Source of the DNA: a virus
Reading direction: 5' to 3' (one strand)
Virus record (IMG/VR): IMGVR_UViG_3300036791_000462
Span: 1-64,000 of that record
Length of the DNA stretch: 64,000 bases
Part shown: piece after piece, positions 4,149 through 56,430 of the stretch
Numbering within the stretch: the stretch's first letter is position 1
Layout: every line of letters starts with the position of its first letter
Notes under the pieces: generated by a model
Seen by the model: only the letters and a program-made list of their open reading frames with translations
Told to the model about the DNA's origin: nothing
Databases searched by the model: none
Position numbers and translations under genes: made by a program

Positions 4149-5524
4149 CAGCCACCCCTCCGCTTGGTGACCGAGCGCACGGCGGGTTTCTTCGGCGGCT
4201 GTTTGGGCACGATCAAAAACCAGCCGGTGGGTTTCCTGGATCCCTTCGGACCCCAGGTCTGGTAGATCGCGGCGTTGCCGCTGCCGCCGTGCAGGTCGTT
4301 CGCTTTCGCGATGGTGCGCCACTCACCGGGGTCGTGGTAGTAGAAGTGCGCGAGATCGCTGAGGCTGCAGGGCTTGTCGCGCGGCCCGATCTGCCCGATC
4401 TGGTCGTCCCACGCGAGGAACGGCCCGTTCTCCACCAGGTTGTTGGCCTTGAAGTAGACCCTTCCTGGGAGTCGCAACACCGTCTGTTTGGGCACTCTTG
4501 AGCCACGCGGGTCGCGCCACTCCATGAAGCTGACGGCCGACAGGTAGATCGCGTCGCCCTCCCCGTGGCGGTAGTCCTCGTTGAAGGCCGTCAGCAGCGC
4601 GTAGGTGCTGTGGATCGTGGTCGAGTCCTTGAACGCCGCGACGTAGCGGAACGGTGCCCCAGCCTCAAACAGGGTGCGAAGCTGCTCGACGTACCACTCG
4701 GGGCGGCGGTACTGCTGCCCGCCAGGCATTTTCGTCGGGTACGGCACCCAACCGGGGAGGTAGTGCTTGCCGTCCTTCGTCGTCCCGAGGTACATCGCGA
4801 GCGTGTCGAAGGACCAGGTGTCCAACTGCCGGGAGCCGCGTCGGGCGAACTGGTCGTCGTCAATCGTGTCGTAGGTGCCCATGTTGAAGTTGTGCGAGAG
4901 CGTGTACTGCTCCAGCGGGCCGCACTGGAACACGAACGCCTGCGGCAGCAGCGCCCGCCCCTCCTTGTCCACCGTCAGCCCTCCGCCGATGGCGGACAGC
5001 GTGACCTTCACCCCGTCCGGCGGCGCTGGCGGTGGGTCGTGCTTGCTGTCTGCGAGCCCTGCGCGAAGCTCCCGTTCGTAGCGTTTGGCTTTCGCTGTGT
5101 CGTCGGCTTTCGCGAGCGCCTTCTCGTACGGGGTGAGTTGGATCGGCGCCCACGGATCCCCAGGCGGATTGTTCTGGTTCGAGTTGGTCGCCTGCCATAC
5201 CTGCCCGGCGTTGAAGACGTACGCGCCGACCGGGTAGGTGGGCGATGCTGACCACGCCGGAATCTGGTTCCAGCCCGGACCGCCGGGCACGCCTCCCGTG
5301 GTGGTCGTCGCGATCCACGCTGAGCCCGCGTAGGACACGATGCTTCCGGGAGGGTAGGTCGGGTGCCTCGACCAGGCCGGTGCTGCTACGGAACTCCAGT
5401 TTCGGTTGTTCGTGCCTGGCTTGTGGTTCGTGTTCTGCCAGATCGCGGTCCACGTATCCCCGCTGTAGAACACCCGGTCGGCGACGTTGTAGGTCCACGT
5501 GCTGCTCCATCGCGGCGCGCTCAC
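4148..5524 (-). CDS. Tail tube initiator (XkdP-like, C-terminal LysM-like) with N-terminal CBM5/12-like repeats
   Basis: Directly follows the tape measure; SLSDLAHFYYHDPGEWRTIAKANDL is LysM-like; three W-x4/5-Y-xx-[AG]-x-x-V..W repeats at the N-terminus. Confidence 0.7.
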   Translation of the reverse strand: MSAPRWSSTWTYNVADRVFYSGDTWTAIWQNTNHKPGTNNRNWSSVAAPAWSRHPTYPPGSIVSYAGSAWIATTTTGGVPGGPGWNQIPAWSASPTYPVGAYVFNAGQVWQATNSNQNNPPGDPWAPIQLTPYEKALAKADDTAKAKRYERELRAGLADSKHDPPPAPPDGVKVTLSAIGGGLTVDKEGRALLPQAFVFQCGPLEQYTLSHNFNMGTYDTIDDDQFARRGSRQLDTWSFDTLAMYLGTTKDGKHYLPGWVPYPTKMPGGQQYRRPEWYVEQLRTLFEAGAPFRYVAAFKDSTTIHSTYALLTAFNEDYRHGEGDAIYLSAVSFMEWRDPRGSRVPKQTVLRLPGRVYFKANNLVENGPFLAWDDQIGQIGPRDKPCSLSDLAHFYYHDPGEWRTIAKANDLHGGSGNAAIYQTWGPKGSRKPTGWFLIVPKQPPKKPAVRSVTKRRGG

Positions 5525-15974: not shown

Positions 15975-17033
15975 TCAGGGGACGATTGAGCGGTATGCGC
16001 CGCGCGGGTCGATCACGCCGACGCCGAAGTCCGAGCGGACTTTGAAGTCAACGGAGTCGAGTTCGAACTGGTACGGATCGGTTCCCGCACCGAGCGCCAT
16101 TCTGACCATCGGGTCGCGGAGCATCACCTGCGGTTCCGCCTGGCCGTTCAGGAACCCGATAGCGAACCCTGGCACGTCGTTCGGATCAGCGAACAGGTAC
16201 CAGTCGTTCGAGTCGTGGAACCACGGGTCGCGAATCACGCCGTCGGCCGGGAGGATCCCCGCGAGCGGATTGATCGTCCCCTTGTCCATGTACAGCGTGC
16301 CGGTGCCCTTCGTGCCGCCGGTGTAGGTGACGTTCGTGCCTGTCTGGGTGGAGTTCAGAACGCGCTGGGCGGTCATCTGCATCCGGGCGTTGCGAACCAC
16401 CAGCGCCGACGGGGTGACGACGATCTGGTTGCCGTCGTCGTCCTGCTGTGACTCCATGAACGCGACAGCGTCGGCGAGCGAGTCCTCCGACAGCGGGTCA
16501 ACGACCTGGTTGCCACGGCCGACCGAGTAGAACGGGTTGCCGTCCGGTGCGTTGCCGGGGTTCTCGATCATCGCGATCACGGTCTGCAGGATGAACACAC
16601 CGGCCGCGTACCCCATGTCCGACGGGTTGCGGTTCAGTAGCTCGTTCGAGTCGTCGTTGATGATCGCCTGGCGGGTGATCTGATACACGCCGCCGTACGT
16701 GTCCACCGACAGGGCGGCCGGTGCACGCTCGGTGCGGCGCAGCCCTGGGTAGTGCCCGTGGTCGCCCACGTAGCCGATCCCGAGCAGGCCATTCAGACCA
16801 CGCAGACGCCGCTCGCGGAAGTCGGGCGCGTTCTCCTGCCGGGTGTAGCGCTGGTACTGCGCCTGCGCACGGCTGTAGCCCGTCCACATCGACTGGCGGA
16901 CCGGGCCGTACAGGAAGCTCGGGAAGTCGGCCTTGGAGTCGGCCTCCTCCAGCATCCGTTCGTCGCGCCATTCCTTGTACGCCTCCAGCAGGCGGATCGG
17001 CCTGCCGAACACACCGTATGGGTTGCCGTTCAT
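15975..17033 (-). CDS. Major capsid protein (HK97 fold, Mu gpT-like)
   Basis: 352 aa; DFPSFL..TYGGVYQITRQAIINDD..PSALVV..WYLFADP..FKVRSDFGVGVIDPRGAY; follows protease and cement genes. Confidence 0.92.
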   Translation of the reverse strand: MNGNPYGVFGRPIRLLEAYKEWRDERMLEEADSKADFPSFLYGPVRQSMWTGYSRAQAQYQRYTRQENAPDFRERRLRGLNGLLGIGYVGDHGHYPGLRRTERAPAALSVDTYGGVYQITRQAIINDDSNELLNRNPSDMGYAAGVFILQTVIAMIENPGNAPDGNPFYSVGRGNQVVDPLSEDSLADAVAFMESQQDDDGNQIVVTPSALVVRNARMQMTAQRVLNSTQTGTNVTYTGGTKGTGTLYMDKGTINPLAGILPADGVIRDPWFHDSNDWYLFADPNDVPGFAIGFLNGQAEPQVMLRDPMVRMALGAGTDPYQFELDSVDFKVRSDFGVGVIDPRGAYRSIVP

Positions 17034-17134: not shown

Positions 17135-17521
17135 TCAGAAGCTGTCCTTCGTGTCGAGGTCGATCCGGACGCTGTTGGCGGGGGTGCCGCGCTGCCCGGC
17201 GACCTCCACGATCCGGCCGAACTTCACGTTGCCCGCCGAGGTTGCCGTCAGCGCCCCCGTCGCCGCAACGATGTAGATCGGGTCGCCCTTCACGTTCGCG
17301 GTGATCGGACCGTTCGGCACCTGCACCACGCCCTTCGTGATCAGGAAGAACGGTTCGCTCGCCGCGATCACCGCCGGGGTCTGGAACCCCTGTGTCCACG
17401 GCGGCGTCCTTTGTTTGACCGCGACCCCAACGAAGTTGGCGACTACCGCTGGCGCACCGTGGTTGAGCGCTGTGCCGCCGTTGGTGACGTAGACGCCTGG
17501 GCCTGGGCGGTTATATGGCAT
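17135..17521 (-). CDS. Capsid cement/decoration protein (DUF2190-like)
   Basis: FVGVAV..KGVVQV..KGDPIY..TATSAGNVKFG; between scaffold and capsid genes. Confidence 0.8.
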   Translation of the reverse strand: MPYNRPGPGVYVTNGGTALNHGAPAVVANFVGVAVKQRTPPWTQGFQTPAVIAASEPFFLITKGVVQVPNGPITANVKGDPIYIVAATGALTATSAGNVKFGRIVEVAGQRGTPANSVRIDLDTKDSF

Positions 17522-25675: not shown

Positions 25676-28600
25676 TTAGCTTTCGACGCCCGCGAGCATC
25701 CCCGTGTCGATGGTGGGTTGCGCGACGACCTCAAGATCTTCGACGCTGGCGCTGTACCGGCTCAGCAGCACCGTCGTGTACATCCTCAGGTCCACGACGG
25801 CGGCACTGGTGACGCTCGCGACCACTGACGCGCTGAGCGGCGGCTGCAGCGTCGTCAGGAGCGGCGCGACCAGGATCAGGGTCGCGCGAGTGGCTGCTGT
25901 CGCCGTCGCGAAGATCGAGGTTTGCCCTGCGACCGTCATCCTCGCCTGGGTCGCTGCCTGAGCGACGGGCACGAGCGCGACGACGGTGGGAACCTCGACC
26001 GTCGCGCTGGCTCTAGACGCCGCGCTGGCAGCGGGCGCGAGGAAGGCGGCTGTCAAAACACTCGCGGCAGCGGAGGTTTGCGCGCTGGCTGAGAGCACCA
26101 TCCGCACCCTCACGGCAACGGTCGCGGTCGCGGCAGCGGTGGCTCCCGCGCGTGCGAGCAGCGGCACCGCCCCGGCGGTCGCGAACATCACCGCCTGCGT
26201 CTGCGCAAGCGCGTCAGCGGTCAGTGCGACGGGCGCGGTTGTTAGGCTGACCGCCTGCGTCTGCGCCTGGGCGTGCGCCGCGAACTGCACTGGGGCAGTG
26301 AGTGCGGCCTGCGCCTGGGTGGCGGCAGCGGCCCTGGGGCTCAGGATGCTGCCGAGGATCACCGCCGCCAGCGCCTGGCTGCTTGCTGTAGCGCTGAGGT
26401 TCAGCAGGCTCGCGGCACGTGTCGCCGCCAGCGCCTGGCTGCTTGCCCCGGCGACCGGCGCGATGCTGACAACGTTCGCGACGCCCACGGCCATCGTCGC
26501 CTGGGTGGTTGCGGCGGCGCTTGGTGCAAGCTGGACGGCGGGGATGACCGTCGCGGTCGCTTGGGCTGCGGCGCTCGCTGCGGCGCTCAGCCGCATCGGG
26601 GCCTGAAGCTGAGCGGTGGCCTGCGTCACAGCACCGGCGGCGGCAGCGAGCTTCGTGGCGGCACTCAGGGGTGCTTGCGCCTGGGTGGCTGCCTGAGCGG
26701 TCACGATCAGCGCCGTCGCGGCAGTAAGCGGCGCGAGCGCCTGGGTGCTGGCGGCGGCGCTCAACGTCAGGAACGCGACGCCGGGCACCTGCATCCCGCT
26801 TGTCGCCTGCGACGCAGCCGTGGCAGTCAGAGAAAGCTGGACGGTAACGACAACGGTCGCGAGCGCCTGCGTGGAAGCTGCCGCCGTTGGCGCGATTGGC
26901 CGGGCGGGAATGACCGTCGCCTGCGCTTGTGATGTCGCCTGGGCGGTTGGGACGAGCAGCGTCGGGGCGTTGAGTACGCCAGTCGCAGCGGTTGCTGCCT
27001 GGGCGGTTAGGGCCAGCGCCTGCGCAGCTACCGGGATCGTGATCGTCGCGCTCGCCTGCGTCGCCGCCCCGGCCGTGGCGGTGACAGCCACGGGCGCGGC
27101 GTTGATGCTCTGGACGACCGCGTAGGGCACCACGACCGGCGCGGCATTGCCCGGATCGGTCTGGACGTAGAGCCCCACGATGTCGAGCCCCTTGACGTAG
27201 GGTGCCCACGCAAGTGGCGACCCTGCCGCCTCTGTCCACGCCACTGCGTCGGGCGAATACTCCATGTGTAGGTAGCCGTCGCCCGACTCCCTGACCCGCA
27301 GCCAGATGCTTCGGTCGGCGGCGAACGCGGACGACGGAATCCCGTTGCCCGACCCGCCGGGGCTGCTGAAGCTGGCGCACCACCAGTCGCCACCAGCCTT
27401 CGGACCGCCCGCCGCAGCACTCTGGTCGTAGAACTCGAAACCGACGCTGTTGGCGTCCCACGTCTGAATCTGGAAGTACGACCACGGCGGGTTATTCGAG
27501 TCGCCTGGTGTGAAGCGCAGGTACACCGCCGAGTTCGTGAGCCGGTACCAGTTCAGCGTCTGCATCCACTCGCCGCTGGTACCGCCCGAGTTCAACTGCA
27601 CCTGCCCGTTGCCTATCGGAGTCGCGCCATCGCCACTGAAGCTCCACTGGCTCAGGTCGTTGAAGGCATCCCTGAAGCCCGAGATCGGACCGAGGACCGG
27701 AAAGACGTGGCACGTCGCCTTCGTCTTTGCTGTCGCGCTCACCGTGAGCGGCTGTGCAACGACCGGGATCGTGACCGTCGCGACTGCCTGCGTGGCTGCT
27801 CCTGCCTGCACGATGATCGACGCCGCTCCGGTAACGACCGCGACTGTCAAAGCACTCGACGCGAGCGCGGTCGCTGTCAGCGGCTGCTGAGCGGCGACGA
27901 GCCCAGTCGCCTGGGTGCGCGCGGCAGTATTCGCGATCAGCAAGCTCGGCGCGGTGAGCGCGACCGTCGCCTGCGTCGCAGCGTTCGCGACAGCCGTCAG
28001 CGGAACGCCGCCGACGGACATGGTCGCCAGCGCGCTCGTCGCTGCGTACGCTGCTACGCCGCCGACGCCCGCCACGGTGCCCGCGCTGTAGTGGGCGAGC
28101 ACCTGCGTCGGCGTCAACACGTAGTTGTAGATCGCAGCCTCGTCCAGGACGCCGTCGAAGAACTGGGTGGTGCCGGTACCCCCCCAGCCGACCATCAGGT
28201 CGTGGCTCTGGTCGGAGACTGTGAGCGTCGTGTCACCAAGCGTCGTCACTGCTGCGCCATCGACGTACATCACGCATCCGTTCGCGACTCCGGACCGGAA
28301 CGTGAGCACCACATGGTGGGCGTTGCCATCGTTGAGATTCGGCCCGTTGGTGCCGTACCCGCCGCCGCCGCTGTTGAAGAACGCGAACCCGGTCCAGTCG
28401 AAAGCGTCGATGTAGCCGTTCGGATTGACGAAAATCCCGAATCCGTACTGCTTTACGATCACCGCCTGCAACTGGCCGCTCGGCGGCGGCGAGGCCAGCT
28501 TGAACCAGCCCTCGACAGATCCCGTGGTGAGTTGGAACGCGCTGGGATTGCCGCAATCGACGTAGCCGCTCGTGCCGTCGAACGTCGTTGCCTTGTCGGG

Positions 28601-31600
28601 GTCCGACGGGAGCAGGCCGGGCTGGCTCTGCGTGTACCCGCCGGTGTATGTACCGGGATCGCCGGAACCCGAGGAATCGACGGCGGTGGTAGTCGTGTCG
28701 TCCAGCCGCCAGTAGCCGGTCGGCGCGTCGGACAACACCGTGGCCCGGTAGTTGGCGGTCGGCGCTCCACCCAGCAGGACAGCGGCGGTAGTGAAGCCAT
28801 GGGCGCTCGTCGTCGCTTGCGCCGAGAGCGAAAGCGTGACCGCCCCGGTAACCACGACCGTCAGAGCGCTCGACGCGCGGGCGGTCGCTGTAAGCGGCTG
28901 CGGAGCAGTGACGAACGCGGTCGCCTGGGTGATCGCGACAGCGGTCGCGGTCAGCAGGCTCGAAGCGGTAAGCGTGACCGTCGCCTGCGTCACGGCGTTC
29001 GCTACGGCCGTCAGCGGAATGCCGCCGACGGACACGGTTGCGAGCGCCTGCGTAGCCGCTTGCGCGCTCGGAGCCAGCACGCTCGCGGTAGTCAGCGACA
29101 CGCTCGCGGCCGACGTGGCCCCGGCCGTCAGAGCGAGCTTCACCGCTGCGGTGACCGCAACGGTTGCGCTCGTGGTAGCCCCAGCGCTTGCGCTCAGCGC
29201 CGTAGCGGCGCGCAGGACAACAGTCGCCTGGGACGCCGTCGCAGCGGTTGGTGTGAGCAATGACGGCGCGCTCAGAACCGTCGTTGCTTGTGCTGTCGCC
29301 CCGGCGGTTGGAGCAAGCGCCTGGGCGGTGATCGTCGTGACCGTGGCAGTGGCCGCACTCGCGGCCTGAGCGGCGGTCGCCGCAACAACATTGCCGCCGG
29401 ACCAGTTGTCGCCCGTCGCGGTGTTGCTGAAGATGATGATTCCGGGAGCGCCGCCGCTCGGGAACTGGGTGTCGGTCGTCGTCAGCGCCAACGCACCGTT
29501 CTGGTACAGCGACAGCGTCGAGCCCACCACGCTCAGCATCAGCGTGGTGCCCGCTGGCAGCGGGGTCGCGCCGAGCACCGTCGTCGCTAGCGTCGAGCCT
29601 GTGCCTGACACCCGCTTGCCGATCCGCAGTTCGTAGCTGCCGCCGTTGTTGAAGTAGATGAACCGGTAGAGGTTCTGGCCGGTAGCGAGGTCGGCGCGCA
29701 CGCAGGTTCCGATCCAGTCGCTGAGCCCAGGCGGCGTTTCGACCTGGATCTGTGACCACTGGTCGTTGCCGTAAGTCTCGCCGCGAAGGATCTCGTGCCA
29801 GGTCGCGCTGGTCACGCCTTTGATCTGTTGGGAGACGATCACCGGCGCGGCGTCGAACCCGGTGACCCAGCCACCACCGACAGCGCCGTCGGCACGATTG
29901 AAGTCGTCGGAGGCGACTTGCACATTCCCCCCGGCCGCGCCACCGGGTTGCAACCAGACGGGCGCGGTGAGCGGAGCCAGCGCCTGTGTCGCAGCACTCG
30001 CTGTCGGCGTCAGTAGCTGAGCGGTCGGCGCAGTAACGGTGGCGGTCGCCTGGCTGGCTGCGCCAGCGGTCGGGGTCAGCCGCGTAGCGGCGAAGACCGT
30101 TGCGGTCGCTGCAGACGCAGTCCCGGCGCTCGCTGTGAGCTTCGCTGCGGCGGTTGTGGCAGCGAGCGCCTGGCTGGCCGCACCGGCCACTGGCGCGATT
30201 GGTATTGCGGTCGGCGCTGTGACGGTGGCGGTCGCCTGGCTCGCGGCCCTGGCGACCGGGGCCATGTACGGCTGACCCGTACCGATGCCGTAGTGGGTGG
30301 CAACCTGCGCCGCGCTCAGCACAACGCCGTAGACAGCAACCTCGTCAATCGAGCCCTGGAAGTTGCTGCCACTGCCGGGGTTGCGGTCGAAGATGCAGAG
30401 CGCGCCGTTGGTCGCGATTGAGTTCGCGGTCGCTGCCGCCGTCCCGACCTGTACGCCGTTGATGTAGCACTTCAGCACGGTCGCCGGGTCGTAGGTCATG
30501 ACGATGTGCTGCGTCACTCCAACCTGCGCGACAGGCGAGTTGACTGCGGTTGTGATTCGCGCCGCAGCGGAGTCGAAGACGTTGAACTCCCAGCGCCCAT
30601 CACCGGTCTGGTAGTGGCGGATGTACCACAACTGGTCGCTGCCACGAGAGATGACCTGCGGGCTGCCGCTGGCCGGTATCCCCGAGGGCTTGACCCACGC
30701 TTCGACGGTCAGCGCGGTGGTCACGTCCAGGCTGGCGCTCGTCGGGATGTTGATGTAGCTGGTGGTGCTGCCGAACGCGGGAGCGTTGCTCGCGGCGGCG
30801 TCTGCGCTGTTCGTAATCAAGCCGCCCGCGTTGTAGGCGATGCTCGACCCGACCGTGGTCGATGGGTTGGTGCCCTTTGAGTCCTGGAACTGGCCGGACG
30901 TTTCATCGAGCCGCCAGTAGGAGATCAGCCCCGCTTCGGACAGAATCAGGTCGCGGTAGGCGGTGGTCGGGATGATGACGTTCGCCGCCGCCTGGCTGGC
31001 CGCCCCGGCGGTAGCGTTCAAAGGCTGCGCTACCGGTGGAACGTTGAAGTTGTCAAAGGTGGCGTTGGTGTCAGTCTCAGCCGCGTAGTACCCCGCCCAA
31101 AGCTGCGGGAACATCGCACCGGTCGGGAACGGATCGGCGATGCTGAACTGGTTCGTCCAGTTGACCGCGTCCGTCGAGTAGTCCCAGTAGAGCGTCCCGG
31201 CCGACTCGCGGATCCGAACCCAGAGCGTGCTGGCTGGCAGCGTGATCGCGGTCTGCAGGTGCGACGTGCCTCCCGTGTCCCAGTAGACCGGCTGTATCTG
31301 CCGCGTGCCGCTGGTCGCGACGAACTCCCACGCCGCGCCGCCCTGGCTGTTCGAGCCCTGTGCAATGTCGATCTCGACACCGGTCTGAAACGAGTTGTTG
31401 GTACCAGCCGGTGGCGGCGTCACCTGCGCGAGCATGCTTGAGCCAGTCAGCACCCACGGTCGCTGGGCGATAACCCCCGAGTAGGCGGTCGTCGCGAGCA
31501 CCGCCAAGGTGCCGCCCGACTCGGTGACGGTGCCGTACGTCGTCCACTTGCCGGTGTCAACAGACGCGCCCGAGAACGTGTCGGTCAGCGTCGCCAGCGG

Positions 31601-31660
31601 TGCCGCCTGCCAGGTCGGCAGGACAGGGTGCGACGGGTATGTCCTGCCGGTGCGAGCCAT
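25676..31660 (-). CDS. Giant Ala/Thr-repeat fibre-like protein with two LamG/ConA-like domains
   Basis: 1994 aa; ~20-aa LxxxAxAxxQAxxxV repeats; YWRLDE/YWRLDD..TVEAWVK..IDEVAVY..L motifs. Confidence 0.8.
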   Translation of the reverse strand: MARTGRTYPSHPVLPTWQAAPLATLTDTFSGASVDTGKWTTYGTVTESGGTLAVLATTAYSGVIAQRPWVLTGSSMLAQVTPPPAGTNNSFQTGVEIDIAQGSNSQGGAAWEFVATSGTRQIQPVYWDTGGTSHLQTAITLPASTLWVRIRESAGTLYWDYSTDAVNWTNQFSIADPFPTGAMFPQLWAGYYAAETDTNATFDNFNVPPVAQPLNATAGAASQAAANVIIPTTAYRDLILSEAGLISYWRLDETSGQFQDSKGTNPSTTVGSSIAYNAGGLITNSADAAASNAPAFGSTTSYINIPTSASLDVTTALTVEAWVKPSGIPASGSPQVISRGSDQLWYIRHYQTGDGRWEFNVFDSAAARITTAVNSPVAQVGVTQHIVMTYDPATVLKCYINGVQVGTAAATANSIATNGALCIFDRNPGSGSNFQGSIDEVAVYGVVLSAAQVATHYGIGTGQPYMAPVARAASQATATVTAPTAIPIAPVAGAASQALAATTAAAKLTASAGTASAATATVFAATRLTPTAGAASQATATVTAPTAQLLTPTASAATQALAPLTAPVWLQPGGAAGGNVQVASDDFNRADGAVGGGWVTGFDAAPVIVSQQIKGVTSATWHEILRGETYGNDQWSQIQVETPPGLSDWIGTCVRADLATGQNLYRFIYFNNGGSYELRIGKRVSGTGSTLATTVLGATPLPAGTTLMLSVVGSTLSLYQNGALALTTTDTQFPSGGAPGIIIFSNTATGDNWSGGNVVAATAAQAASAATATVTTITAQALAPTAGATAQATTVLSAPSLLTPTAATASQATVVLRAATALSASAGATTSATVAVTAAVKLALTAGATSAASVSLTTASVLAPSAQAATQALATVSVGGIPLTAVANAVTQATVTLTASSLLTATAVAITQATAFVTAPQPLTATARASSALTVVVTGAVTLSLSAQATTSAHGFTTAAVLLGGAPTANYRATVLSDAPTGYWRLDDTTTTAVDSSGSGDPGTYTGGYTQSQPGLLPSDPDKATTFDGTSGYVDCGNPSAFQLTTGSVEGWFKLASPPPSGQLQAVIVKQYGFGIFVNPNGYIDAFDWTGFAFFNSGGGGYGTNGPNLNDGNAHHVVLTFRSGVANGCVMYVDGAAVTTLGDTTLTVSDQSHDLMVGWGGTGTTQFFDGVLDEAAIYNYVLTPTQVLAHYSAGTVAGVGGVAAYAATSALATMSVGGVPLTAVANAATQATVALTAPSLLIANTAARTQATGLVAAQQPLTATALASSALTVAVVTGAASIIVQAGAATQAVATVTIPVVAQPLTVSATAKTKATCHVFPVLGPISGFRDAFNDLSQWSFSGDGATPIGNGQVQLNSGGTSGEWMQTLNWYRLTNSAVYLRFTPGDSNNPPWSYFQIQTWDANSVGFEFYDQSAAAGGPKAGGDWWCASFSSPGGSGNGIPSSAFAADRSIWLRVRESGDGYLHMEYSPDAVAWTEAAGSPLAWAPYVKGLDIVGLYVQTDPGNAAPVVVPYAVVQSINAAPVAVTATAGAATQASATITIPVAAQALALTAQAATAATGVLNAPTLLVPTAQATSQAQATVIPARPIAPTAAASTQALATVVVTVQLSLTATAASQATSGMQVPGVAFLTLSAAASTQALAPLTAATALIVTAQAATQAQAPLSAATKLAAAAGAVTQATAQLQAPMRLSAAASAAAQATATVIPAVQLAPSAAATTQATMAVGVANVVSIAPVAGASSQALAATRAASLLNLSATASSQALAAVILGSILSPRAAAATQAQAALTAPVQFAAHAQAQTQAVSLTTAPVALTADALAQTQAVMFATAGAVPLLARAGATAAATATVAVRVRMVLSASAQTSAAASVLTAAFLAPAASAASRASATVEVPTVVALVPVAQAATQARMTVAGQTSIFATATAATRATLILVAPLLTTLQPPLSASVVASVTSAAVVDLRMYTTVLLSRYSASVEDLEVVAQPTIDTGMLAGVES

Positions 31661-39546: not shown

Positions 39547-41385
39547 CTACCTCCTCGTGCTGGACGCAAGCCCTACGGTCAGCTTGCCTGTCAGGTCGCC
39601 GCGCCGCTGCTGGATGGCCTGAACCTTCTGGCGCTCCTCATTGGTCGCGCCGCTGCCCGGCTGCAGGCGTTTCTGTAGCTGCGCGCCACCGAGATCCTCC
39701 AGATGCACCAGGTGAATCGGAACGTGCGTCAGCCCGCGCTCCTGCGCGACCTGGAACGTGGAGTTGCCGTCGAGGATCCGCATCGTCCCGTCAGGCTCAC
39801 GGCGGACCATCAGCGGCTTGCGTTTATCCATCTCTCCGCGCTTGGCCTTGTCCATGAACCCTGCCGCTTTCGCGACGTGCTCGGCGGTGTCCTGTCGCGA
39901 CGGGGTGAGATCGCGGACACGCACCAAGTCGTGCGGCTTGCGCAGGTCGAAGTAGTCGGATGCCATCTCCGCTCCGTGCGCTGCGCTACCACCCCCGCTC
40001 GGTTTTAGGCGGTTGAACACCTCCGACCATTTCCCGCCGCGCCCCCTCGGGTGCAGGCGAGCGTTCCAGAACGCCTCAGCCAGCCTGGCGCGGAGCACAC
40101 GTTCGCGAGCAAGGGCGCGAGTGAACTCCGTGCCGTTGGCGGCTGCCTTCCGGGCGATGATCGCCTCGGCCAGCGCCGTCACCGCTGGCGCGAGATCACG
40201 CCCATCCAGGATCGTCGTGTCCGCCGGTGGCGGTGGCTGCTCGGCACGCCCGTCCGGGATCGTGAGGTCCGGCAGGTCACGAACACCGGTCCGGGTCCAG
40301 ATCGGCAGGTCGCAGTCGGGTGTCTGCTCGCGCCCGTCGGGGATCGACATTGACGGGTCGCCGCCGTAACCGAACGCGACGGTTGTTTCCTCCAGGTCCG
40401 GTTGCTGGGCTGGGATCTGCGCGGAGGTCGCAACCTGCACCTTCCCCGTCCGGTGCGGAGTTGCCCCACCTTTCTTCGGCGCGGTGAGCTTCATCTTCGG
40501 CCCGCCGCCGCCGCTGGGTTTGTGCGCCTTCCCGCGTTCGAGCACCGCGACCTCGCCCGGCAGCGGAGCTTGTGCTCGCGCGATCTTCGCGGCCTCCTGC
40601 TTCGCTAGCTGTTTCTTGAGTGCCTTCACGGCCCTGAGTGCTCCTCTCGCGTTCTTCTGGGCGGTTCTCGCGGTACGTGCCGCTGCTTGCGCGTCCCTGT
40701 GCGCGATGGCGCTGCCGCCGACGGCGGCGGCTTTGGCTTCCTTCGCGAGCTTCTCGGCGTTCGCGGCAGCGGTCTGTGCCTGCGCGGCGTCGTGGCGTGC
40801 CCACATCAGGTTTGTGTCGTGTCCCGTCTGACGCGCTTCCTTGGACGTTTGCTGCCCGGCGGCGATGGCGGCTTTCGTTTCACCGGAGACGGTCGTGTTC
40901 GCCTGCGCCTGCGCGGGAGTGATCTTCGCGACGGACGCTCTCGACGTGCTCGACTTCGAGGTGGACCTGCTGGTGGACCTGGACTTCTTGGGGGCGTACG
41001 GGCCGATGCCCCGCATGCGCTGCACCTGATCGAGCGTCTGCGGCGGCGGGTTCTGCAGCAGCGTCATCGTCGCGGCGTCCACGCCCATGCTCGGACTCAG
41101 CCCGTAGCGCTTCTGGAACGTCTGCACCGCCTGGGTGGTCGCCGGACCGTACTGGCCGTCCACCGGCACCTTGAACCCAAGCTCGTTCAGGCGCTGCTGC
41201 AGTTGCGCGGTCGTCTGATCAGGGCCGCTGGCGGTGTACCCGTCGCCGTGTTTGACGATCCACTGCCCACCACGCCCGCGTGGGTGAAGCTGATTGAAGT
41301 TCCCACCGGCCGTCCCACCGGTGCGGCTCTGCGGTTTGGTCTGCGGTTTGGGTGGCGGAGGCGGCTTCGGTGAGATCAGCGGCAC
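39547..41385 (-). CDS. Multidomain protein: HPRGRGG tags, peptidoglycan-binding domain, C-terminal ParB/Srx-like domain
   Basis: LQQRLNELGF..VDGQYGPATTQAVQTFQKRYGL; KPLMVRREPDGTMRILDGNSTF. Confidence 0.75.
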   Translation of the reverse strand: MPLISPKPPPPPKPQTKPQSRTGGTAGGNFNQLHPRGRGGQWIVKHGDGYTASGPDQTTAQLQQRLNELGFKVPVDGQYGPATTQAVQTFQKRYGLSPSMGVDAATMTLLQNPPPQTLDQVQRMRGIGPYAPKKSRSTSRSTSKSSTSRASVAKITPAQAQANTTVSGETKAAIAAGQQTSKEARQTGHDTNLMWARHDAAQAQTAAANAEKLAKEAKAAAVGGSAIAHRDAQAAARTARTAQKNARGALRAVKALKKQLAKQEAAKIARAQAPLPGEVAVLERGKAHKPSGGGGPKMKLTAPKKGGATPHRTGKVQVATSAQIPAQQPDLEETTVAFGYGGDPSMSIPDGREQTPDCDLPIWTRTGVRDLPDLTIPDGRAEQPPPPADTTILDGRDLAPAVTALAEAIIARKAAANGTEFTRALARERVLRARLAEAFWNARLHPRGRGGKWSEVFNRLKPSGGGSAAHGAEMASDYFDLRKPHDLVRVRDLTPSRQDTAEHVAKAAGFMDKAKRGEMDKRKPLMVRREPDGTMRILDGNSTFQVAQERGLTHVPIHLVHLEDLGGAQLQKRLQPGSGATNEERQKVQAIQQRRGDLTGKLTVGLASSTRR

Positions 41386-43772: not shown

Positions 43773-43777
43773 GCTTC

Positions 43778-43824
43778 CTCCTCGGTCGTTTCTCTACATC
43801 CAGCTTAGCACACAACGCGCGTTA
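43778..43824 (-). promoter_or_regulatory. Repeat element, copy 4
   Basis: TAACGCGCG-T-TGTGTGCTA, TAAGCT, CGACCGAGGAGG. Confidence 0.8.
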
Positions 43825-46011: not shown

Positions 46012-46018
46012 TTTCTAC

Positions 46019-46079
46019 CTCCTCGGTCGGTTGGAGGGGGAGCGTTTCCCACTAACATCCTAGCACAAAACGTGCGCTA
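46019..46079 (-). promoter_or_regulatory. Repeat element, copy 6
   Basis: TAGCGCACG-T-TTTGTGCTA, TAGGAT, CGACCGAGGAGG. Confidence 0.8.
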
Positions 46080-48017: not shown

Positions 48018-48749
48018 CTAGCCTGCAGCGGCTCCAGTATCGCCCCCACTTCCTCCGGTCCTTTCATCGTCGGACTGCAAGTCACGCGGAACCCCGAAGT
48101 CGGCAGCCAGTTGCGGGTCGATGGGAGGTGCCCCTTGATCCCACCCCGGCGGCGGTGTCCACGTTTGCTTGCCCGCACCCTTGCGATAGCGCAGCGGTTC
48201 CGGGGAGCCCGCCTCGAACGGCACGTCGATTCGCATCCCGGCGTCACGAATCTGCGTTTCGGTCATCCCCCCGGCCGGTAGCTCACTGGCCTGCGGGGGG
48301 TTCGGCAGGTCGCTGCTTGAGTCCGCTTCGCTCAACTGGTTCAAGTCCTGCAGCCACTGCGGGTCGTCGCCCGCGAAGTCCTCGTCCACCGGTCCTTCGG
48401 GCTCGGCGACGCCCTGCACCGGCTCGGTCAGACGGTGCCTGCCGCCGACCATCCCGGCGATCTCCTCGGCGCTGGACGGCCACAGGTCATCCTGCGCCTG
48501 GGGGTTGGTCATCCACCCGTTGTCGTTCTCAGAGAACGTGTCGCCGTCACCCGGTCCTGTCTGGCGGTACGGTGTCGTCCCGTCACGCAGCCAGTAGGTG
48601 TAGTCGCCGCCTTCGTAGTCCGATCTTGGTGGTCCCGGCAGCGGGCGTTGCGGCAGTGTTTGCGACGGGTCCGTTTCGCGGTTGACCGTCCCGCCTGGAT
48701 CGACTGGTGCGAGCGGGTCGCGGGCCTCGTCCAACTCGTCGGCCATCAC
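48018..48749 (-). CDS. Acidic Pro/Asp-rich protein coupled to the polyvalent gene
   Basis: 243 aa, GTGA overlap, LDEA and LSEA motifs. Confidence 0.6.
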   Translation of the reverse strand: MMADELDEARDPLAPVDPGGTVNRETDPSQTLPQRPLPGPPRSDYEGGDYTYWLRDGTTPYRQTGPGDGDTFSENDNGWMTNPQAQDDLWPSSAEEIAGMVGGRHRLTEPVQGVAEPEGPVDEDFAGDDPQWLQDLNQLSEADSSSDLPNPPQASELPAGGMTETQIRDAGMRIDVPFEAGSPEPLRYRKGAGKQTWTPPPGWDQGAPPIDPQLAADFGVPRDLQSDDERTGGSGGDTGAAAG

Positions 48750-51604
48750 GCCACCCTCGGGCGCAGCACCCCGGTGAGCCGATTGCCCCGACGGGCGCGG
48801 TTACCTGTTGGTTCCTGGGTGCCTGCCAGGATCGCGTTGGTGCGCGCGGTCAGGCCCTTCAGTTCTCTGGCGGCAGCGCGCTGCTCGTCGCGGGTGCCGA
48901 GAATCACCTCGTGCGGGTCCGCGACGAGCCCGCCGTGCTGGGACACGCCCCACGCCCGGTCGTAGTACGGCTTCGCGGCTTTCTGCAGGTCCGCGACAAC
49001 CTGTTTCTCGGCCGGTGTCGGCTCGCGTTTCTGCTGTTTGGCAAGCTCCTCGACCTGGCGTTCCAACTCGTAGTAGTGGTGGCCCGGCCCGATCTCCTTC
49101 GTCCACCACAGCGGGTTGGTGTTGACCTGAAGCTCGGTCGTCAGCCCACCGGCGGACTCGGGTGCGCGCAGGATCAGGGTCGTGTCGCCGTACCCGTTCT
49201 CCGTCGAGCGGTTCGACCCGTTCGCGTCCACCAGACGGCGTTTCATCCGCTCCACCGTCCAGCCCTTCGCAGCGACCTGCTGGCGGATCGTCGCGAGCGT
49301 GTGTTCGAGATCCTGCGCGGTCGGGACGGTCACCGTCGCACGAACCGCGTCGTGCAGGTCAGAGAAGTCGTTCGCGTGACCCAGCGACGCCTGCTTCGCA
49401 ATCGCTCGCTTCAGGCTCTTGATCGGCGCGACGATCAGGTGCGGCTGGTCCATGTTGTGCTGGATGTCCTGCCCGGTCTGCTGGAAGCTCTTGCCCTGCG
49501 AAATGTCGTGCTTGGTCCCGCCAAGCTGGTCGATCACGCCGGTGCCGATGTCGAGGATCTGCTGCAACGCCGGAAGCGTTTTCGACTCGCCTCGCGCGAG
49601 AAGCTCCTGCGGGTCGCTGACCGGCTGTTTCTTCTTCTCCCCGTCGCCGGTGATCCCGAACTGGTCGCGCATCGACTGAAACTCCTTCGAGACGTTGCGG
49701 CCCACACGACGCTCGACCTCGGGGTTCGTTCGGGTCGTCTGCCCGCCCGTTTTCCAGACGCCGCGCTTCGGGCCTGCCACGTCACGCACGCCAGGTAGCT
49801 GCTCGTGCGCCTTGGCGAGCACCTGCGCGTACGCGCGGTCGGCAGGGATCGCGTAGTCCGAACCGTCGAGCTTCTTGTCCTCCGCGCCCGACGGGAAGCT
49901 GATCTTGCCGTCCGGCAGCGCTTGGGCTACGAGCCTCGGTGGGTTCGGTCGGCCGGACGCTTCGTCCAACCCCTGGTTGGTGTCGTACACGTGGACTCGC
50001 GCGCCCATCTGCGCCGCCTTGTCCATCACGCCGGGGATCGTCGCGGACACGTCGCGGTGGACCGCGCGCATGATCACGTCGGGGATCATGCGACCGCCCG
50101 CCTCGGCGTTCGCACGCGCCTTCTCGGCACGGTCCTTCGCGCGGCTGATCGCGTCGTTCGTCGGCGTGCTGACGTAGGAGATGCGCGGGTTGACGTACCC
50201 CGCGTCGGTGAACGACTTGACGCGCTTGGCGACCTCGTCGGCGTTCGTGTTCGTGATCCCGTCCACGATCACGTTCAGCTTGCGCTTCTGCGCCTCCGCC
50301 ATCACGTGCTGCGCGATGTCCCACGCCTCGGCGTACACCCGCAGGTTCGCCTCCGGGTCATCCGCCGAGCTTGCCTGAAACTCGGGTAGCTCCGCCTTGA
50401 TCAGGTCCGGGTCGAGGAGCAGCGCGTTCTGAGGCAGCGCATCCGGGTCGTCAGGGTGCTTCTGGCTGAGCATGTGCAACAGCCCGCCCTTCCCGGCCGC
50501 GTACCCACCGCCGGTGAACATCACGGTCGGCTTGCCGGACGGCGCTTTCAGATACGAGTTCGTTTTGCTGAGCCCCCGGTCGTTGCCCTTCGCGTCCAGG
50601 TTGTGCTCGCGCAGCATCATGTCGATGATCCGCGCGTGCAGCTTCGCGCGGGACTGGTCCCACGTGCCGTCCGGGTTGCGGTACATCTCAGCGGTCGTCG
50701 GCCTGGTGGTCGCATCCTCCGCGTACGCCAACAGCGTTTTCTGGGACACGCGGCCCGCATCGTTGAAGTGAACCTCCGCTTGGCTCAGATCATGCTCACC
50801 GCGAACCTGCCCAGCGGCCGGGGTTGAGCGTGACAGCCCGACGCGACGCACCCGGCGGCCGATCCGCTTCTCCAGCGACTTGGTGCGCCGTTCGTACAGC
50901 GCCGACTGGCCGTGCGCGAGCGTCTGCTTACGGTCGTGGATCGCGTTGGTGTGCGCCTGCTCCTTCGCGAAGTGCTCCGCCGCCGCCGCGTGGTCACCAC
51001 GTTTCGCTGCCGCGTTGCCCGCCTTGCGTTCCTGGGTCGCGAGCCGCTCCAGGCGCTGGCGTCCAGCGAGGTGAACCTTCTGCGCGTCGGTGGCCTCCTG
51101 TTTGAACTGGCGCAGGCTCATCGCCTCCGGGAGCGTGCCGCCAGTCTGCACCGCCTTACCCGCAGGATGCGGTTCGGGGGTCGCGAACACGGGAAACTTC
51201 CCGCCTCTGACGCCAGCCCGGCGGCCCTTCAGCACCTTGATCTCGCCCGGCATCCGCTCCGTCGGTGGGCGCTGGATCGTTTTCAGACGCGGGCCTGAGT
51301 GAACCGCTTTCGCGATCCGGTTCTGCGGCACGACCTCGTGGGAGCGGAGCTTCGCGTCGGCAAACGCGCCGCCGAGCTTGTCGATCCACTTCCCGCCACG
51401 GCCGCGCGGGTGCAGCACCTCGGTCCAGTCAACCTCCTGCAGGCCGGTGAGCGCCAGGTCGAGCACGCCTGCCTGCTCCCACAGGTCAAGTTCGGTGTGC
51501 GACACCCAGCCGATCCGGTCCAGATCGTCGGTGGTGGCGAGCCCCCGGCGCAAGAACTCCTCTCGGAGGGTGGCGTTCTCGCGCGCAATGGTGGCAGCCT
51601 CCAT
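48746..51604 (-). CDS. Polyvalent protein: HPRGRGG tag, Zeta-toxin-like P-loop kinase, RelA/SpoT-like nucleotidyltransferase
   Basis: MFTGGGYAAGKG..LDPDLIKAELP..NVIVDGIT..RMIPDVIMRAVH; PIKSLKRAIAK..LHDAVRATV..NGYGD..TELQVNT..GHHYYE. Confidence 0.8.
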   Translation of the reverse strand: MEAATIARENATLREEFLRRGLATTDDLDRIGWVSHTELDLWEQAGVLDLALTGLQEVDWTEVLHPRGRGGKWIDKLGGAFADAKLRSHEVVPQNRIAKAVHSGPRLKTIQRPPTERMPGEIKVLKGRRAGVRGGKFPVFATPEPHPAGKAVQTGGTLPEAMSLRQFKQEATDAQKVHLAGRQRLERLATQERKAGNAAAKRGDHAAAAEHFAKEQAHTNAIHDRKQTLAHGQSALYERRTKSLEKRIGRRVRRVGLSRSTPAAGQVRGEHDLSQAEVHFNDAGRVSQKTLLAYAEDATTRPTTAEMYRNPDGTWDQSRAKLHARIIDMMLREHNLDAKGNDRGLSKTNSYLKAPSGKPTVMFTGGGYAAGKGGLLHMLSQKHPDDPDALPQNALLLDPDLIKAELPEFQASSADDPEANLRVYAEAWDIAQHVMAEAQKRKLNVIVDGITNTNADEVAKRVKSFTDAGYVNPRISYVSTPTNDAISRAKDRAEKARANAEAGGRMIPDVIMRAVHRDVSATIPGVMDKAAQMGARVHVYDTNQGLDEASGRPNPPRLVAQALPDGKISFPSGAEDKKLDGSDYAIPADRAYAQVLAKAHEQLPGVRDVAGPKRGVWKTGGQTTRTNPEVERRVGRNVSKEFQSMRDQFGITGDGEKKKQPVSDPQELLARGESKTLPALQQILDIGTGVIDQLGGTKHDISQGKSFQQTGQDIQHNMDQPHLIVAPIKSLKRAIAKQASLGHANDFSDLHDAVRATVTVPTAQDLEHTLATIRQQVAAKGWTVERMKRRLVDANGSNRSTENGYGDTTLILRAPESAGGLTTELQVNTNPLWWTKEIGPGHHYYELERQVEELAKQQKREPTPAEKQVVADLQKAAKPYYDRAWGVSQHGGLVADPHEVILGTRDEQRAAARELKGLTARTNAILAGTQEPTGNRARRGNRLTGVLRPRVA

Positions 51605-52213: not shown

Positions 52214-53965
52214 TCAGGTCGCCTGAATCCGGACGTGCATCGCCTTGCGGTTCAGCACGACGCGGACCTGGTGCCCGTTGCGGATCAGACGGCGCAGAAC
52301 GCCGCATGTCTGGCCCTTCCCATTCAGTTCGCGAATGAGAACCTCACATGAGGTCTTCGAGCCCTTCGAGTTGAGCCACAGCACGTTGCGATGACCCTTG
52401 CGCAGGTAGCTCACTCGCTCGCCAACGAGGCAGCGCAGCACCGGCGGCTTGCTACCAGTGGGGGCCACGTACGGAGGCGGCGTGTCAACGACAGGCATCG
52501 GGTAGACGCCCGGCATCGTCGGGGTCGTGACCGGCACGACAGTCGGCGCTGGGGTTGTCGCCCCGGTGCCTGAGCCCGTCCCTGAGCCCGTGCCCGTAGC
52601 GGGCGGGATGACCGGCAGCGGCGGGGTGCCAGCAGTGGCGTTCGTGAACGTCACCTCGGTCACACCAGCGCTGATCGTGGCTGTGATCGTCCCTGCGGAC
52701 AGGCTGTCCGAGACGAAGTCGGCCGATGGGTCAACCGCTTCGCCGATGACCGACAGTCCGGTCGTGGGCGTTTCGGTGATCGTCTCGGTCGCGCTGAGCG
52801 GGAACGAGCCCGCGATGGCGCAGAAGCCAGCCGGGACGCTCAGCGTCTGGCCGCCGATGGTGAACTTGAACACCTGGCCGACGGTGACGCCGGTACCCGC
52901 GTTCTTGCAGACCTTCAGCAGACCCGGTGCGGCCGGGACGTTGGTGTAGAACACGTCCGTCTCGCCGGACCCGAGCGTCACGCTGACGTTCCCGCCATTG
53001 AGGTCGGTCGAGCCTGGCACCGCGCGGTTGTCGGTCACGTTGATCGCGCTGACAGCCGTGCCTGGGACGGCGGTTTCGTGGATGTTCAGAACGGTCCCGC
53101 CTGGGTACGGAGTCGGGATCAGCACACAGCTACCTGGGAACGGTTCGGCAACGGCGGTGTACGTGTTGCCGCCGACCGTGAACGAGTAGATCGTCCCGTT
53201 CAGGCTGGACGCCCCCGCGATCTTGCAGATCTTCAGCCGCGAGGTTGAGTTGACGAACGTCTCGATGACTTCGTTGTTGACATCGGTGCCCTGCGGGACG
53301 TTGACCTCGGTCGTGTCAGCGGCGAGGTTGTCGGACAGCAGGTCGGTCGAGGGGATCGTGGAGACGGCCACCAGGTCGGTGTTGTTCGACCCGATCTCGT
53401 TGACCTGATCCGTTCCGGCTGGCACCCGGAACGAGTCCGAGCAAGCGCCGACCGGCACGCCCGAGACGACCTTGTCGAAGCCCATCGGCCCCTTGACCTC
53501 GAACGTGAACGTGCCCGTCAACCCGGAGCCCTGCGCTGCTGATTTGCAGATCTCCAGAGTGCCGAACATCTCTTTGTTCGTGTATTCGACCGTGGTCGCG
53601 GTCGAGATGTCGCCCGCCGCGACCGTGACCACATCCGTGCGTGTGCTCAGGTTCGAGGACACGAGGTCGGCCTGCGGGATCGTGTCGGTCGCCGTCTCAG
53701 CCGTGAAGGTGTTCGACGCCTCCACGACCGTGTGGTTGCCAGCAGGCACCTGCAGCGGTGCCGAACACTGCCCGGTGAGCACAACTACCTGGTGCCCATC
53801 GACCGTGAACGTGAACGGCCCCGTCACCGGCGCGGTGGAGTCTGAGTGCTTGCAGATCTCCAGGAATCCGGTTGGTACGGCGGTCGGTACGGACGCGCTC
53901 GCGAGCGCCGGTACGACCAGGGCGGCGACAGCGACAGCTACCGCCACCAGAATGACTTTCTTCAT
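52214..53965 (-). CDS. Secreted protein with four Cys-containing Ig/prealbumin-like repeats and a Pro/Thr linker
   Basis: Signal peptide ..ALASA; repeats GFLEICK, GTLEICK, SRLKICK, GLLKVCK. Confidence 0.75.
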   Translation of the reverse strand: MKKVILVAVAVAVAALVVPALASASVPTAVPTGFLEICKHSDSTAPVTGPFTFTVDGHQVVVLTGQCSAPLQVPAGNHTVVEASNTFTAETATDTIPQADLVSSNLSTRTDVVTVAAGDISTATTVEYTNKEMFGTLEICKSAAQGSGLTGTFTFEVKGPMGFDKVVSGVPVGACSDSFRVPAGTDQVNEIGSNNTDLVAVSTIPSTDLLSDNLAADTTEVNVPQGTDVNNEVIETFVNSTSRLKICKIAGASSLNGTIYSFTVGGNTYTAVAEPFPGSCVLIPTPYPGGTVLNIHETAVPGTAVSAINVTDNRAVPGSTDLNGGNVSVTLGSGETDVFYTNVPAAPGLLKVCKNAGTGVTVGQVFKFTIGGQTLSVPAGFCAIAGSFPLSATETITETPTTGLSVIGEAVDPSADFVSDSLSAGTITATISAGVTEVTFTNATAGTPPLPVIPPATGTGSGTGSGTGATTPAPTVVPVTTPTMPGVYPMPVVDTPPPYVAPTGSKPPVLRCLVGERVSYLRKGHRNVLWLNSKGSKTSCEVLIRELNGKGQTCGVLRRLIRNGHQVRVVLNRKAMHVRIQAT

Positions 53966-56288: not shown

Positions 56289-56430
56289 CCCGCGCTTCCT
56301 TACCGGTCGTTTAGCCACCAACGAAAGGAGCCGCACCACACGACCAACTAGCTGAGCCCCCGGAACGTAAGCGAGTACGGGAACAGGCTCGGCGTGCTGA
56401 TCAGTGACCTCAGACCGTCAGGAGGAGTCT

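Follow-up and report, generated by a model that had tools for sequence, protein, structure and literature searches.

A phage protein joining a Zeta/AvrRxo1-type kinase to a Tas1-like synthetase behind a shared peptide tag: a probable virion-borne effector

We analysed a stretch of viral DNA of 64,000 nucleotides (the window), which is the first 64 kb of record IMGVR_UViG_3300036791_000462, a linear genome of 107,110 bp with a CheckV completeness of 86%; genome-wide searches reported below refer to this 86%-complete record. We found that one minus-strand gene of the window encodes a protein, P0001, that joins a Zeta/AvrRxo1-type P-loop kinase to a C-terminal Tas1/Apk-like RelA-SpoT-homologue (RSH) synthetase, behind a helical leader, a short peptide tag and a basic middle region (Table 1). 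Both folds are assigned with confidence. Function is read from homology and context, and the best-supported reading is that P0001 is probably a polyvalent infection-phase effector, likely carried in the virion, that would turn two enzymes against host adenine nucleotides and be restrained by an acidic partner protein. A reading of the DNA made from its letters (the sequence-only reading) had proposed a Zeta-like kinase and a RelA/SpoT-like synthetase in one phage polypeptide. The frame it named is indeed open on the minus strand over 952 codons, with codon-position GC contents of 0.69/0.46/0.87 as in other real genes of the genome, and all motifs it quoted are present in the translation. Nineteen full-length homologues, 45-83% identical to P0001, were found on metagenomic viral contigs, most of them 105-126 kb long, and the whole-protein AlphaFold model reached a predicted local distance difference test (pLDDT) score of 76.7. 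The Pfam match of the kinase, the 390 relatives of the C-terminal domain and the profile match to Tas1, all given below, indicate that the motifs are real, beyond what chance would produce. Both folds were thus recovered by the profile and structure searches that had been suggested as a check.

The kinase was matched by Pfam Zeta_toxin (PF06414) over residues 355-541 with an E-value of 1.7e-22 (80.3 bits against a cut-off of 22.3; profile positions 12-186 of 199), and its wider span was taken from the whole-protein AlphaFold model. Foldseek returned zeta (3q8x, 1gvn), AvrRxo1 (4z8t and others) and PezT (2p5t) as the top matches of the kinase model, in agreement with the Zeta-like kinase proposed earlier. 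The P-loop GGGYAAGK372G, D398-P-D400, VxVD448G and the R505/R513/R517 cluster were invariant in 19 of 19 homologues. The GGGYAAGKG and DPD motifs aligned with GGGPASGKG and DADEIK of cyanophage P-SS2 gp030, whose kinase belongs to the same phage-specific subfamily (33% identity over ~225 columns, hhalign probability 98.8), and P-SS2 was the only match when the whole of P0001 was searched against phages by tblastn. Moreover, one homologue, P0021, carries an intein of ~390 residues (Pfam Hom_end and LAGLIDADG_3 in the precomputed annotation; columns ~536-922 of alignment A1) exactly between GGGYA and SGKG of the kinase P-loop. Inteins are typically inserted at conserved, functionally constrained ATPase sites. 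The first residue of the P0021 intein is apparently neither Cys nor Ser, and the element may be a class 2 or class 3 intein.

Structurally, the P0001 kinase was nearer to AvrRxo1 than to zeta and PezT, the UDP-N-acetylglucosamine (UDP-GlcNAc, UNAG) 3′-kinases of the epsilon/zeta and PezAT systems. AvrRxo1 is a Xanthomonas type III effector that phosphorylates the adenosine 3′-OH of NAD and NAAD (PMC5087710, PMC5491322) and, more slowly, ATP and ADP; it keeps the residues with which PezT binds ATP, whereas those for UNAG binding are not conserved (PMC5087710). Its catalytic D193 lies in NPDVFK, as printed in the D193N mutagenesis primer (PMC5087710), and this has the same xPDxxK pattern as DPDLIK of P0001. 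Because AvrRxo1 shares the xPDxxK motif, phosphorylates NAD, ATP and ADP and does not keep the UNAG-binding residues, we infer that an adenine dinucleotide or nucleotide is at least as likely an acceptor of the P0001 kinase as UDP-GlcNAc, by a modest margin. The likeness to AvrRxo1 is one of fold and motif at low sequence identity, and the GGGYAxGKG variant of the P-loop is specific to the phage subfamily that includes P-SS2 gp030, unlike AvrRxo1. The P0001 kinase also differs from the epsilon/zeta and PezAT kinases in being part of a 952-residue multidomain phage protein, and no epsilon- or PezA-type antitoxin was recognisable at its locus, where the neighbours had no match in Pfam, PHROG, PADLOC, NCBIfam or PDB; the acidic ORF described below could be an inhibitor of an unrelated kind.

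For the synthetase domain, residues 640-952 served as query for an exhaustive phmmer search of 1.8 billion representatives, which yielded 390 relatives at E<=1e-3. A family profile built from 49 short relatives was searched against the PDB and matched Tas1 (6ox6) with an E-value of 7.5e-22 (81.5 bits), which bears out the RelA/SpoT-like synthetase read from the letters. The Streptomyces exported alarmone synthetase SaEAS (8vx3) followed at 3e-6 (30.2 bits), RelA, RelQ and RelP stood at ~1e-3, long RSH proteins and small alarmone synthetases (SAS) scored ~20 bits, and CapRel gave no match at E<=10. Only this broad profile reached Tas1, while PDB searches with the single sequence or a narrow family did not. 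The matches of those narrower searches, to fungal PVL-type lectin repeats and botulinum light-chain segments (E>0.7), were rejected as chance; they covered 30-residue stretches at GWxVE...G..R....GYG and had no significant per-domain E-value. In the fold comparison, Tas1 gave the lowest root-mean-square deviation (2.3 Å) and the highest identity (23%). Tas1 and P0001 also have in common an APxK in place of RxK (APxKSxxRAxxK), an ExQVN in place of ExQxR, and the motif GHxYYExxR.

Across the 19 homologues, K729/R733/K737 of the donor-phosphate helix, D752 and R755, Y805 and E824-x-Q826 were invariant, and H842 of GHxYYExxR was near-invariant in these and invariant in the wider A3 alignment. With residues R64/K66/S70/K74/R77, D90 and Y128 of FaRel2 as the reference (PMC11782079), K729/R733/K737 are taken as contacts of the donor phosphate, D752 as Mg-binding, Y805 as the G-loop tyrosine and E824-x-Q826 as catalytic. 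Tas1 (Apk1) and the phage MuF-fused Apk2 are (p)ppApp synthetases by experiment and kill by draining ATP (PMC10083569). Since both are proven (p)ppApp synthetases and P0001 shares the quirks of Tas1, (p)ppApp synthesis is most likely the activity of the domain, and tRNA pyrophosphorylation is the main alternative. The latter would make it a tRNA 3′-CCA pyrophosphokinase of the CapRel/PhRel/FaRel2 kind that shuts off host translation. We consider this quite unlikely, because the profile scores fall steeply from Tas1 to the other synthetases and to CapRel, because Tas1 is the nearest fold, and because the APxK and ExQVN variants of P0001 are specific to Tas1. The sequence-only reading had named (p)ppGpp or (p)ppApp synthesis and tRNA pyrophosphorylation together; the profile scores uphold the Tas1/Apk class of (p)ppApp synthetases and speak against the tRNA-targeting toxic SAS. 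Related proteins at three loci (L005-L007) keep the leader, the tag and the kinase and are without the synthetase, which is therefore a modular C-terminal addition.

Directly downstream of the P0001 gene lies an acidic open reading frame (ORF), a quarter of whose residues are Pro or Gly. An overlapping acidic ORF of 243 residues had been pointed out before as a possible chaperone or antitoxin; it is real, conserved and overlapping, with a likely length of 242 residues. It most likely starts at the ATG at 48746, which has a GAGGG eight bases upstream, and would be translationally coupled to P0001 through the TGATG overlap. We identified 22 homologues of the ORF, with conserved short motifs between variable acidic linkers, and no match in Pfam, PHROGs, PADLOC, NCBIfam or PDB. 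In three related phages (L001-L003) it follows the orthologous gene and is ~52% identical. At L007:9818-12001, its core motif (…MxExQIRxAGLRIDxP…WTPPPGW…; L007:11597-11740) is fused in frame to the C-terminus of a synthetase-less kinase protein, which is a Rosetta-stone-type link between the acidic ORF and the kinase protein, and a shorter copy follows the synthetase-less protein of L005. Because the acidic ORF is fused to, or follows, kinase proteins without a synthetase, its pattern of occurrence indicates that it belongs with the kinase/leader core rather than the synthetase, and that it is not a Tis1 analogue.

Complex prediction with P0001 residues 281-935 and the acidic ORF gave an ipSAE of 0.51 against 0.00 for the best control, which the tool rates as 'weak support'. 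Among 80 solved complexes 58 pass the mark applied, as do 2 of 110 mismatched pairs, and scores of 0.60 or below include 7 of the 80 solved complexes and both passing mismatches. The runs agreed in at least 15% of contacts, with a partner pLDDT of at least 48, and the prediction returned no interface. A role of the acidic protein as brake, chaperone or assembly adaptor is plausible. This conserved, coupled ORF and its predicted contact would also suit a module of toxin and immunity gene resembling the polymorphic MuF toxins known from temperate phages, that is, a weapon against competing bacteria or phages or a superinfection or addiction device with the acidic ORF as immunity, and in the nearest characterised system, Apk2 with BcTis1/Aph1, a toxin gene is likewise followed by immunity genes. 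Nevertheless, we hold this to be very unlikely. Family searches of the 107-kb, 86%-complete record found no tyrosine integrase and no resolvase/serine recombinase, and none of 185,579 species-representative bacterial and archaeal genomes contains a relative of P0001, hence there is no sign of prophages. Moreover, the acidic ORF is retained by the relatives that lack the synthetase and has no similarity to Tis1.

The tag of P0001 connects it to other proteins of the same genome. Residues 1-280 are basic (isoelectric point 10.3), and residues 1-262 gave no usable ESM Atlas match (TM <=0.39); the N-terminal region had no Pfam or PHROG match, no known fold was found for the leader, and residues 56-100 are predicted to be disordered (pLDDT <50 in the whole-protein model). 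When P0001 was searched against its own genome, residues ~33-91 were found to resemble the N-termini of other large proteins. The common element is a peptide of ~20 residues, [LI]xE..[WF]....HPRGRGG[KEQ]W, present in seven copies and one variant in seven proteins. Four of the tagged genes lie directly after the portal gene and encode a cytidylate-kinase protein (868 residues), an ADP-ribosyltransferase (ART) with a GNAT-like part (530 residues), a DUF7178 protein (515 residues) and a protein of no family (891 residues). The nine core codons of the tag vary at synonymous sites between copies (mean nucleotide identity 81%), so the tag is conserved as a peptide and not as DNA. In related phages, the tag occurs in orthologous proteins, and up to four copies lie inside giant proteins of 1813 and 2618 residues (L006:343-5769 and the L007 frame from ~13.7 kb), four in each and ~270-850 residues apart, as if each module had its own tag. 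Gordonia phage GodonK gp67 (1479 residues), encoded directly after the portal, has the tag at residue ~22; GodonK and a second Gordonia phage, Phendrix, are the nearest cultivated phages that carry it. In many P0001 orthologues, a variant WGLG..FNRR..RGRGGRF stands in its place and keeps the core RGRGG[KR][WF]. A literature search for the tag as a string returned nothing relevant, though motifs resembling LHPRDxxGRF may be present in MuF-like proteins of actinophages. Given that the tag is short, disordered, conserved as a peptide and attached to unrelated enzymes centred on the MuF slot, we infer that it may serve as a capsid-addressing or processing signal.

Phage T4 offers a precedent for such a signal, since its capsid-targeted cargo, Alt and the internal proteins, carries a capsid-targeting sequence that is cleaved at (L/I)xE. 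In both cases unrelated proteins have a common short N-terminal signal, and the [LI]xE of the P0001 tag resembles the T4 prohead-protease site. Unlike in T4, no prohead protease of the T4 or HK97 type was detected in the P0001 phage, and the HPRGRGGKW core has no counterpart in T4.

The domain partners of the synthetase family point in the same direction. Among 62 long relatives of the synthetase domain, we found fusions to zeta kinase (6), portal (5), InPase (4), topoisomerase IB (2), ART (2), MuF (2), Acb1 (1) and NUDIX (1), as well as to ParB and GNAT domains. This set is the polyvalent-protein repertoire of Iyer et al. (PMC5512222), and BFVD fold matches agree with it. Iyer et al. (2017) include both the zeta-like kinase and RelA/SpoT among polyvalent-protein domains and make the case for packaging and injection of such proteins (PMC5512222). 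The earlier statement that both domains occur in phage polyvalent or MuF-associated proteins is therefore backed by the literature (PMC5512222, PMC10083569) and by the partners found here. P0001 itself has two conflict-type enzyme domains in one chain of 952 residues on a virus record, as is characteristic of a polyvalent protein. A link to the virion may come through the tag, which portal-adjacent proteins carry as well, and through those relatives of the two domains that are joined to portal or MuF proteins; the gene itself lies outside the head module. In the virion proteome of P-SS2, which detected all six structural proteins assigned by sequence, ORF 030 is a recognisable capsid-module protein in a cluster of virion-detected proteins (PMC2784084). 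By analogy, this is the nearest experimental hint that the kinase subfamily may travel in particles.

The same enzymes could also act unpackaged, as a host-takeover or nucleotide-rewiring pair expressed during infection in the producing cell, with the acidic ORF as regulator and the tag serving partner binding, localisation or proteolytic control. Such a role fits the location of the gene within an extended run of small genes that do not look structural, distant from the portal and capsid genes, its co-orientation and coupling with conserved small genes, and the absence of a MuF domain from its product. On the other hand, four large proteins in the classical post-portal MuF slot carry the tag, as does GodonK gp67, which occupies that slot as well; both enzyme domains have relatives joined to portal or MuF proteins; and P-SS2 gp030, with a kinase of the same subfamily, falls within the virion-detected cluster. 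We therefore regard unpackaged action as unlikely, though it deserves to be taken seriously.

Several results weigh against a virion-borne effector with two active enzymes. The P0001 gene lies ~30 kb away from both the portal cluster and the capsid and tail genes, amid small genes without assigned function, and its position alone does not mark it as a head gene. Phage_Mu_F (PF04233) had no match in P0001; its sole match in the genome, at 75674-75769, scored 13.4 bits, below threshold, and falls on the plus strand, whereas the four effector genes are encoded on the other strand; in an hhalign comparison with MuF-bearing P-SS2 gp030 the kinase alone aligned. Genome-wide searches with Peptidase_S77 and Peptidase_S78 gave no usable match for a prohead protease, and HD_4, the family of the Aph alarmone hydrolase, had no match anywhere in the genome. 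The profile of the acidic ORF matched no solved structure, Tis1 in 6ox6 included, so no Tis1-like immunity could be recognised. As for the kinase, the preference for AvrRxo1 amounts to 3 Z units and one motif, and its substrate cannot be read from the sequence. Furthermore, an ATP drain of Tas1 grade early in infection would also harm the phage, so that the activity would have to be attenuated or timed. Finally, Pfam RelA_SpoT (PF04607) had no match at E<=1 to P0001 or to its C-terminal 313 residues, and matched 27 of the 49 short and 17 of the 62 long relatives; the synthetase is thus divergent, as had been said from the sequence.

This missed Pfam threshold could also mean that one or both domains are catalytically dead and have a structural or binding role in the particle, as is the case for inactive enzyme folds in head proteins such as the PBECR domain in the MuF protein of Mu (Iyer et al., PMC5512222). 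Yet every catalytic-motif residue that we checked was invariant or near-invariant in the 19 homologues and the wider family, and the intein of P0021 occupies the P-loop itself, which leaves dead enzymes as an extremely improbable explanation.

If P0001 is a virion-borne effector of host adenine nucleotides, as we favour, the tag would dock it to a head component (portal, scaffold or shell interior), and a few copies would be packed and ejected with the DNA; if unpacked, it would act from within once expressed. In the host cytoplasm, the C-terminal domain would move pyrophosphate from ATP to the 3′-OH of adenine nucleotides, which would yield (p)ppApp, drain ATP and block purine synthesis, as with Tas1 and Apk2. 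The kinase would phosphorylate the 3′-OH of a second nucleotide, either NAD, as AvrRxo1 does, or a UDP-sugar, as zeta and PezT do. Together, the two enzymes might arrest host metabolism or starve nucleotide-dependent defences, and the coupled acidic ORF would be the likeliest brake or chaperone to keep them quiet in the producing cell. A bolder version seems to us improbable as a whole: the tag would load an arsenal of seven enzymes into the capsid, perhaps with processing by a protease, and P0001 would be a dual adenosine-3′-OH modifier, converting NAD to 3′-NADP and ATP/ADP to (p)ppApp, that knocks out abortive-infection defences dependent on NAD and ATP during the first minutes after infection begins.

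Compared with known systems, P0001 is closest to Apk2 (BcTas1; Bartoli et al. 2023, as cited in PMC10083569), the MuF-fused (p)ppApp synthetase toxins of temperate phages (Ahmad et al. 2023, PMC10083569). Both are large phage proteins with a C-terminal Tas1-like RSH synthetase and a downstream gene suspected to restrain it, and for both virion delivery is proposed and unproven. However, P0001 has the HPRGRGGKW-type tag instead of MuF and a zeta/AvrRxo1-type kinase as a second enzyme in the chain, no Tis1-like or Aph hydrolase gene was found with it, its phage shows no integrase or prophage copies, and an actinobacterium of high GC content, not Bacteroides or Streptococcus, is the probable host. 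Tas1/Apk1 of Pseudomonas aeruginosa is delivered by PAAR and the type VI secretion system and neutralised by Tis1, whereas P0001 has a phage carrier, another N-terminus and another neighbour gene. P-SS2 gp030 ('head morphogenesis', 1499 residues, MuF plus zeta kinase) shares the kinase subfamily, and like the polyvalent proteins it places enzymes in large portal- or MuF-linked proteins that are thought to be injected. It has a MuF domain and lies beside the portal, while P0001 has neither feature, combines kinase with synthetase and apparently relies on the tag.

Phage Apk2 toxins, MuF-zeta fusions and polyvalent proteins make P0001 already known in kind, and phage-borne (p)ppApp synthetases and zeta-type kinases are each known only as MuF fusions. 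What is new is that an AvrRxo1-like kinase and a Tas1-like synthetase occur together on a carrier addressed by the tag and lacking MuF, in phages that appear to be lytic, and that both are under strong purifying selection in a clade of ~105-126 kb phages. A short common peptide ties the two enzymes to a set of portal-adjacent enzyme proteins, which provides a system for testing whether nucleotide-modifying toxins are injected by phages to seize control of the host or disarm it, and how cargo proteins of unrelated kinds are directed to the capsid. If the kinase proved to be an NAD 3′-kinase like AvrRxo1, it would represent a new phage strategy in the conflict over NAD between phages and bacterial defences.

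The sequence-only reading had assigned the DNA to a phage, correctly: the record is viral, and because large terminase, portal, major head protein, tail sheath and tape measure are all present, the phage is contractile-tailed. Two endolysins are also encoded, and the minus strand carries nearly all genes. The structural genes form two blocks, one with the terminase, the portal and the effector array at 72-96 kb and one with the major head protein, sheath and tape measure at 5-19 kb; the ~50 kb between them, on one strand throughout, hold mostly small genes, the lysis genes and the P0001 gene. The phage is apparently of a lytic type and high in GC (66% in the window). A megablast search of a 12-kb region against phages gave no match, and Gordonia phages (~122 kb) were the only cultivated phages sharing anything near P0001; from this sharing and the GC content, the host is likely a high-GC actinobacterium.

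Table 1. Features of the P0001 locus and of its phage. Coordinates are window positions unless marked as genome.
Feature	Coordinates	Strand	Remarks
P0001 gene (tag, kinase, synthetase)	48746..51604	-	952 codons open; third-position GC (GC3) 0.87; N-terminus aligns with 19 homologues
N-terminal helical leader, residues 1-55	51440..51604	-	ARENATLREEFLRRGL...; conserved (alignment A1); helices pLDDT ~59-75
Peptide tag, residues 53-77	51374..51448	-	LQEVDWTEVLHPRGRGGKWIDKL; common to other proteins of the genome; predicted disordered
Basic middle region, residues ~100-260	50825..51307	-	small beta unit and long helical hairpin; model pLDDT <=97 at 170-250
Zeta/AvrRxo1-type P-loop kinase, residues ~300-607	49784..50707	-	Pfam core 355-541 = 49982-50542
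GGGYAAGKG, residues 365-373	50486-50512		
DPDLIK, residues 398-403	50396-50413		
VIVDGITNT, residues 445-453			
RMIP, residues 505-508			
Tas1/Apk-like RSH synthetase (pyrophosphokinase), residues ~663-896	48917..49618	-	
KSLKRAIAK, residues 729-737	49394-49420		
DAVR, residues 752-755			
GYGD, residues 804-807			
ELQVNT, residues 824-829	49118-49135		
Acidic Pro/Gly-rich ORF, 242 aa from ATG 48746	48018..48746	-	TGATG overlap with P0001 stop; isoelectric point 4.05
Small conserved upstream gene, 87 aa	51642..51905	-	~50% identical (tblastn) in L001-L003, where it also lies immediately upstream of the P0001 homologue
Next small conserved gene, ~110-124 aa	47690..48064	-	tblastn 69-73% identity in L001-L003; GC3 frame plot
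Tagged 612-aa protein, PG_binding_1 (peptidoglycan-binding)	39547-41385	-	tag copies at 41286 and 40053
Small ORF with tag variant HPRNRSGEF	genome ~69388		
Four large tag-bearing genes directly after portal	genome 72844-81248 = L012:8844-17248	-	
Portal	genome 81806-83899		
Large terminase	genome 94336-96087		
Major head protein	15975-17033		
Tail sheath	11349-12821		
Tape measure	5521-9603		

PADLOC and NCBIfam gave no match for P0001 or its neighbours, the 87-residue upstream gene and the gene after the acidic ORF included. For the latter gene, tblastn identity in L001-L003 begins at residue ~62-77 of the long ORF. The GC3 frame plot suggested a frameshift joining the acidic ORF to this next ORF. 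We rejected it, since in relatives conservation of the acidic ORF extends to its end and that of the next gene sets in only at residue ~62-77. The conserved 87-residue ORF lies between the P0001 gene and the gene for a 583-residue protein (52214-53965, minus strand). This protein has an N-terminal signal-like hydrophobic segment, a Pro/Thr-rich stretch and a basic C-terminal tail, and about four internal repeats of a Cys-containing unit of ~100 residues (...LEICK...G.C...P.G...); it was matched by no Pfam or PHROG family, and tblastn did not find it in the seven related loci L001-L007.

A repeated element, CTTCCTCCTCGGTCG(T/G)TT (reverse complement ...CGACCGAGGAGG...), occurs at 43774-43791, 46015-46032 and 56295-56312 of the window. 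The copies lie just upstream of the minus-strand genes ending at 43772 and 46011 and of another such gene near 56266; directly upstream of the P0001 gene no copy of this leader was found. ARAGORN called a tRNA-Pro(GGG) at 17366-17465 (minus strand), unusually long at 100 nucleotides, between the major head gene and the upstream gene for a 494-residue protein. Lastly, a protein of 1994 residues (25676-31660, minus strand) carries two Laminin_G_3 (ConA-like lectin) domains and is probably a tail fibre or host-recognition protein.

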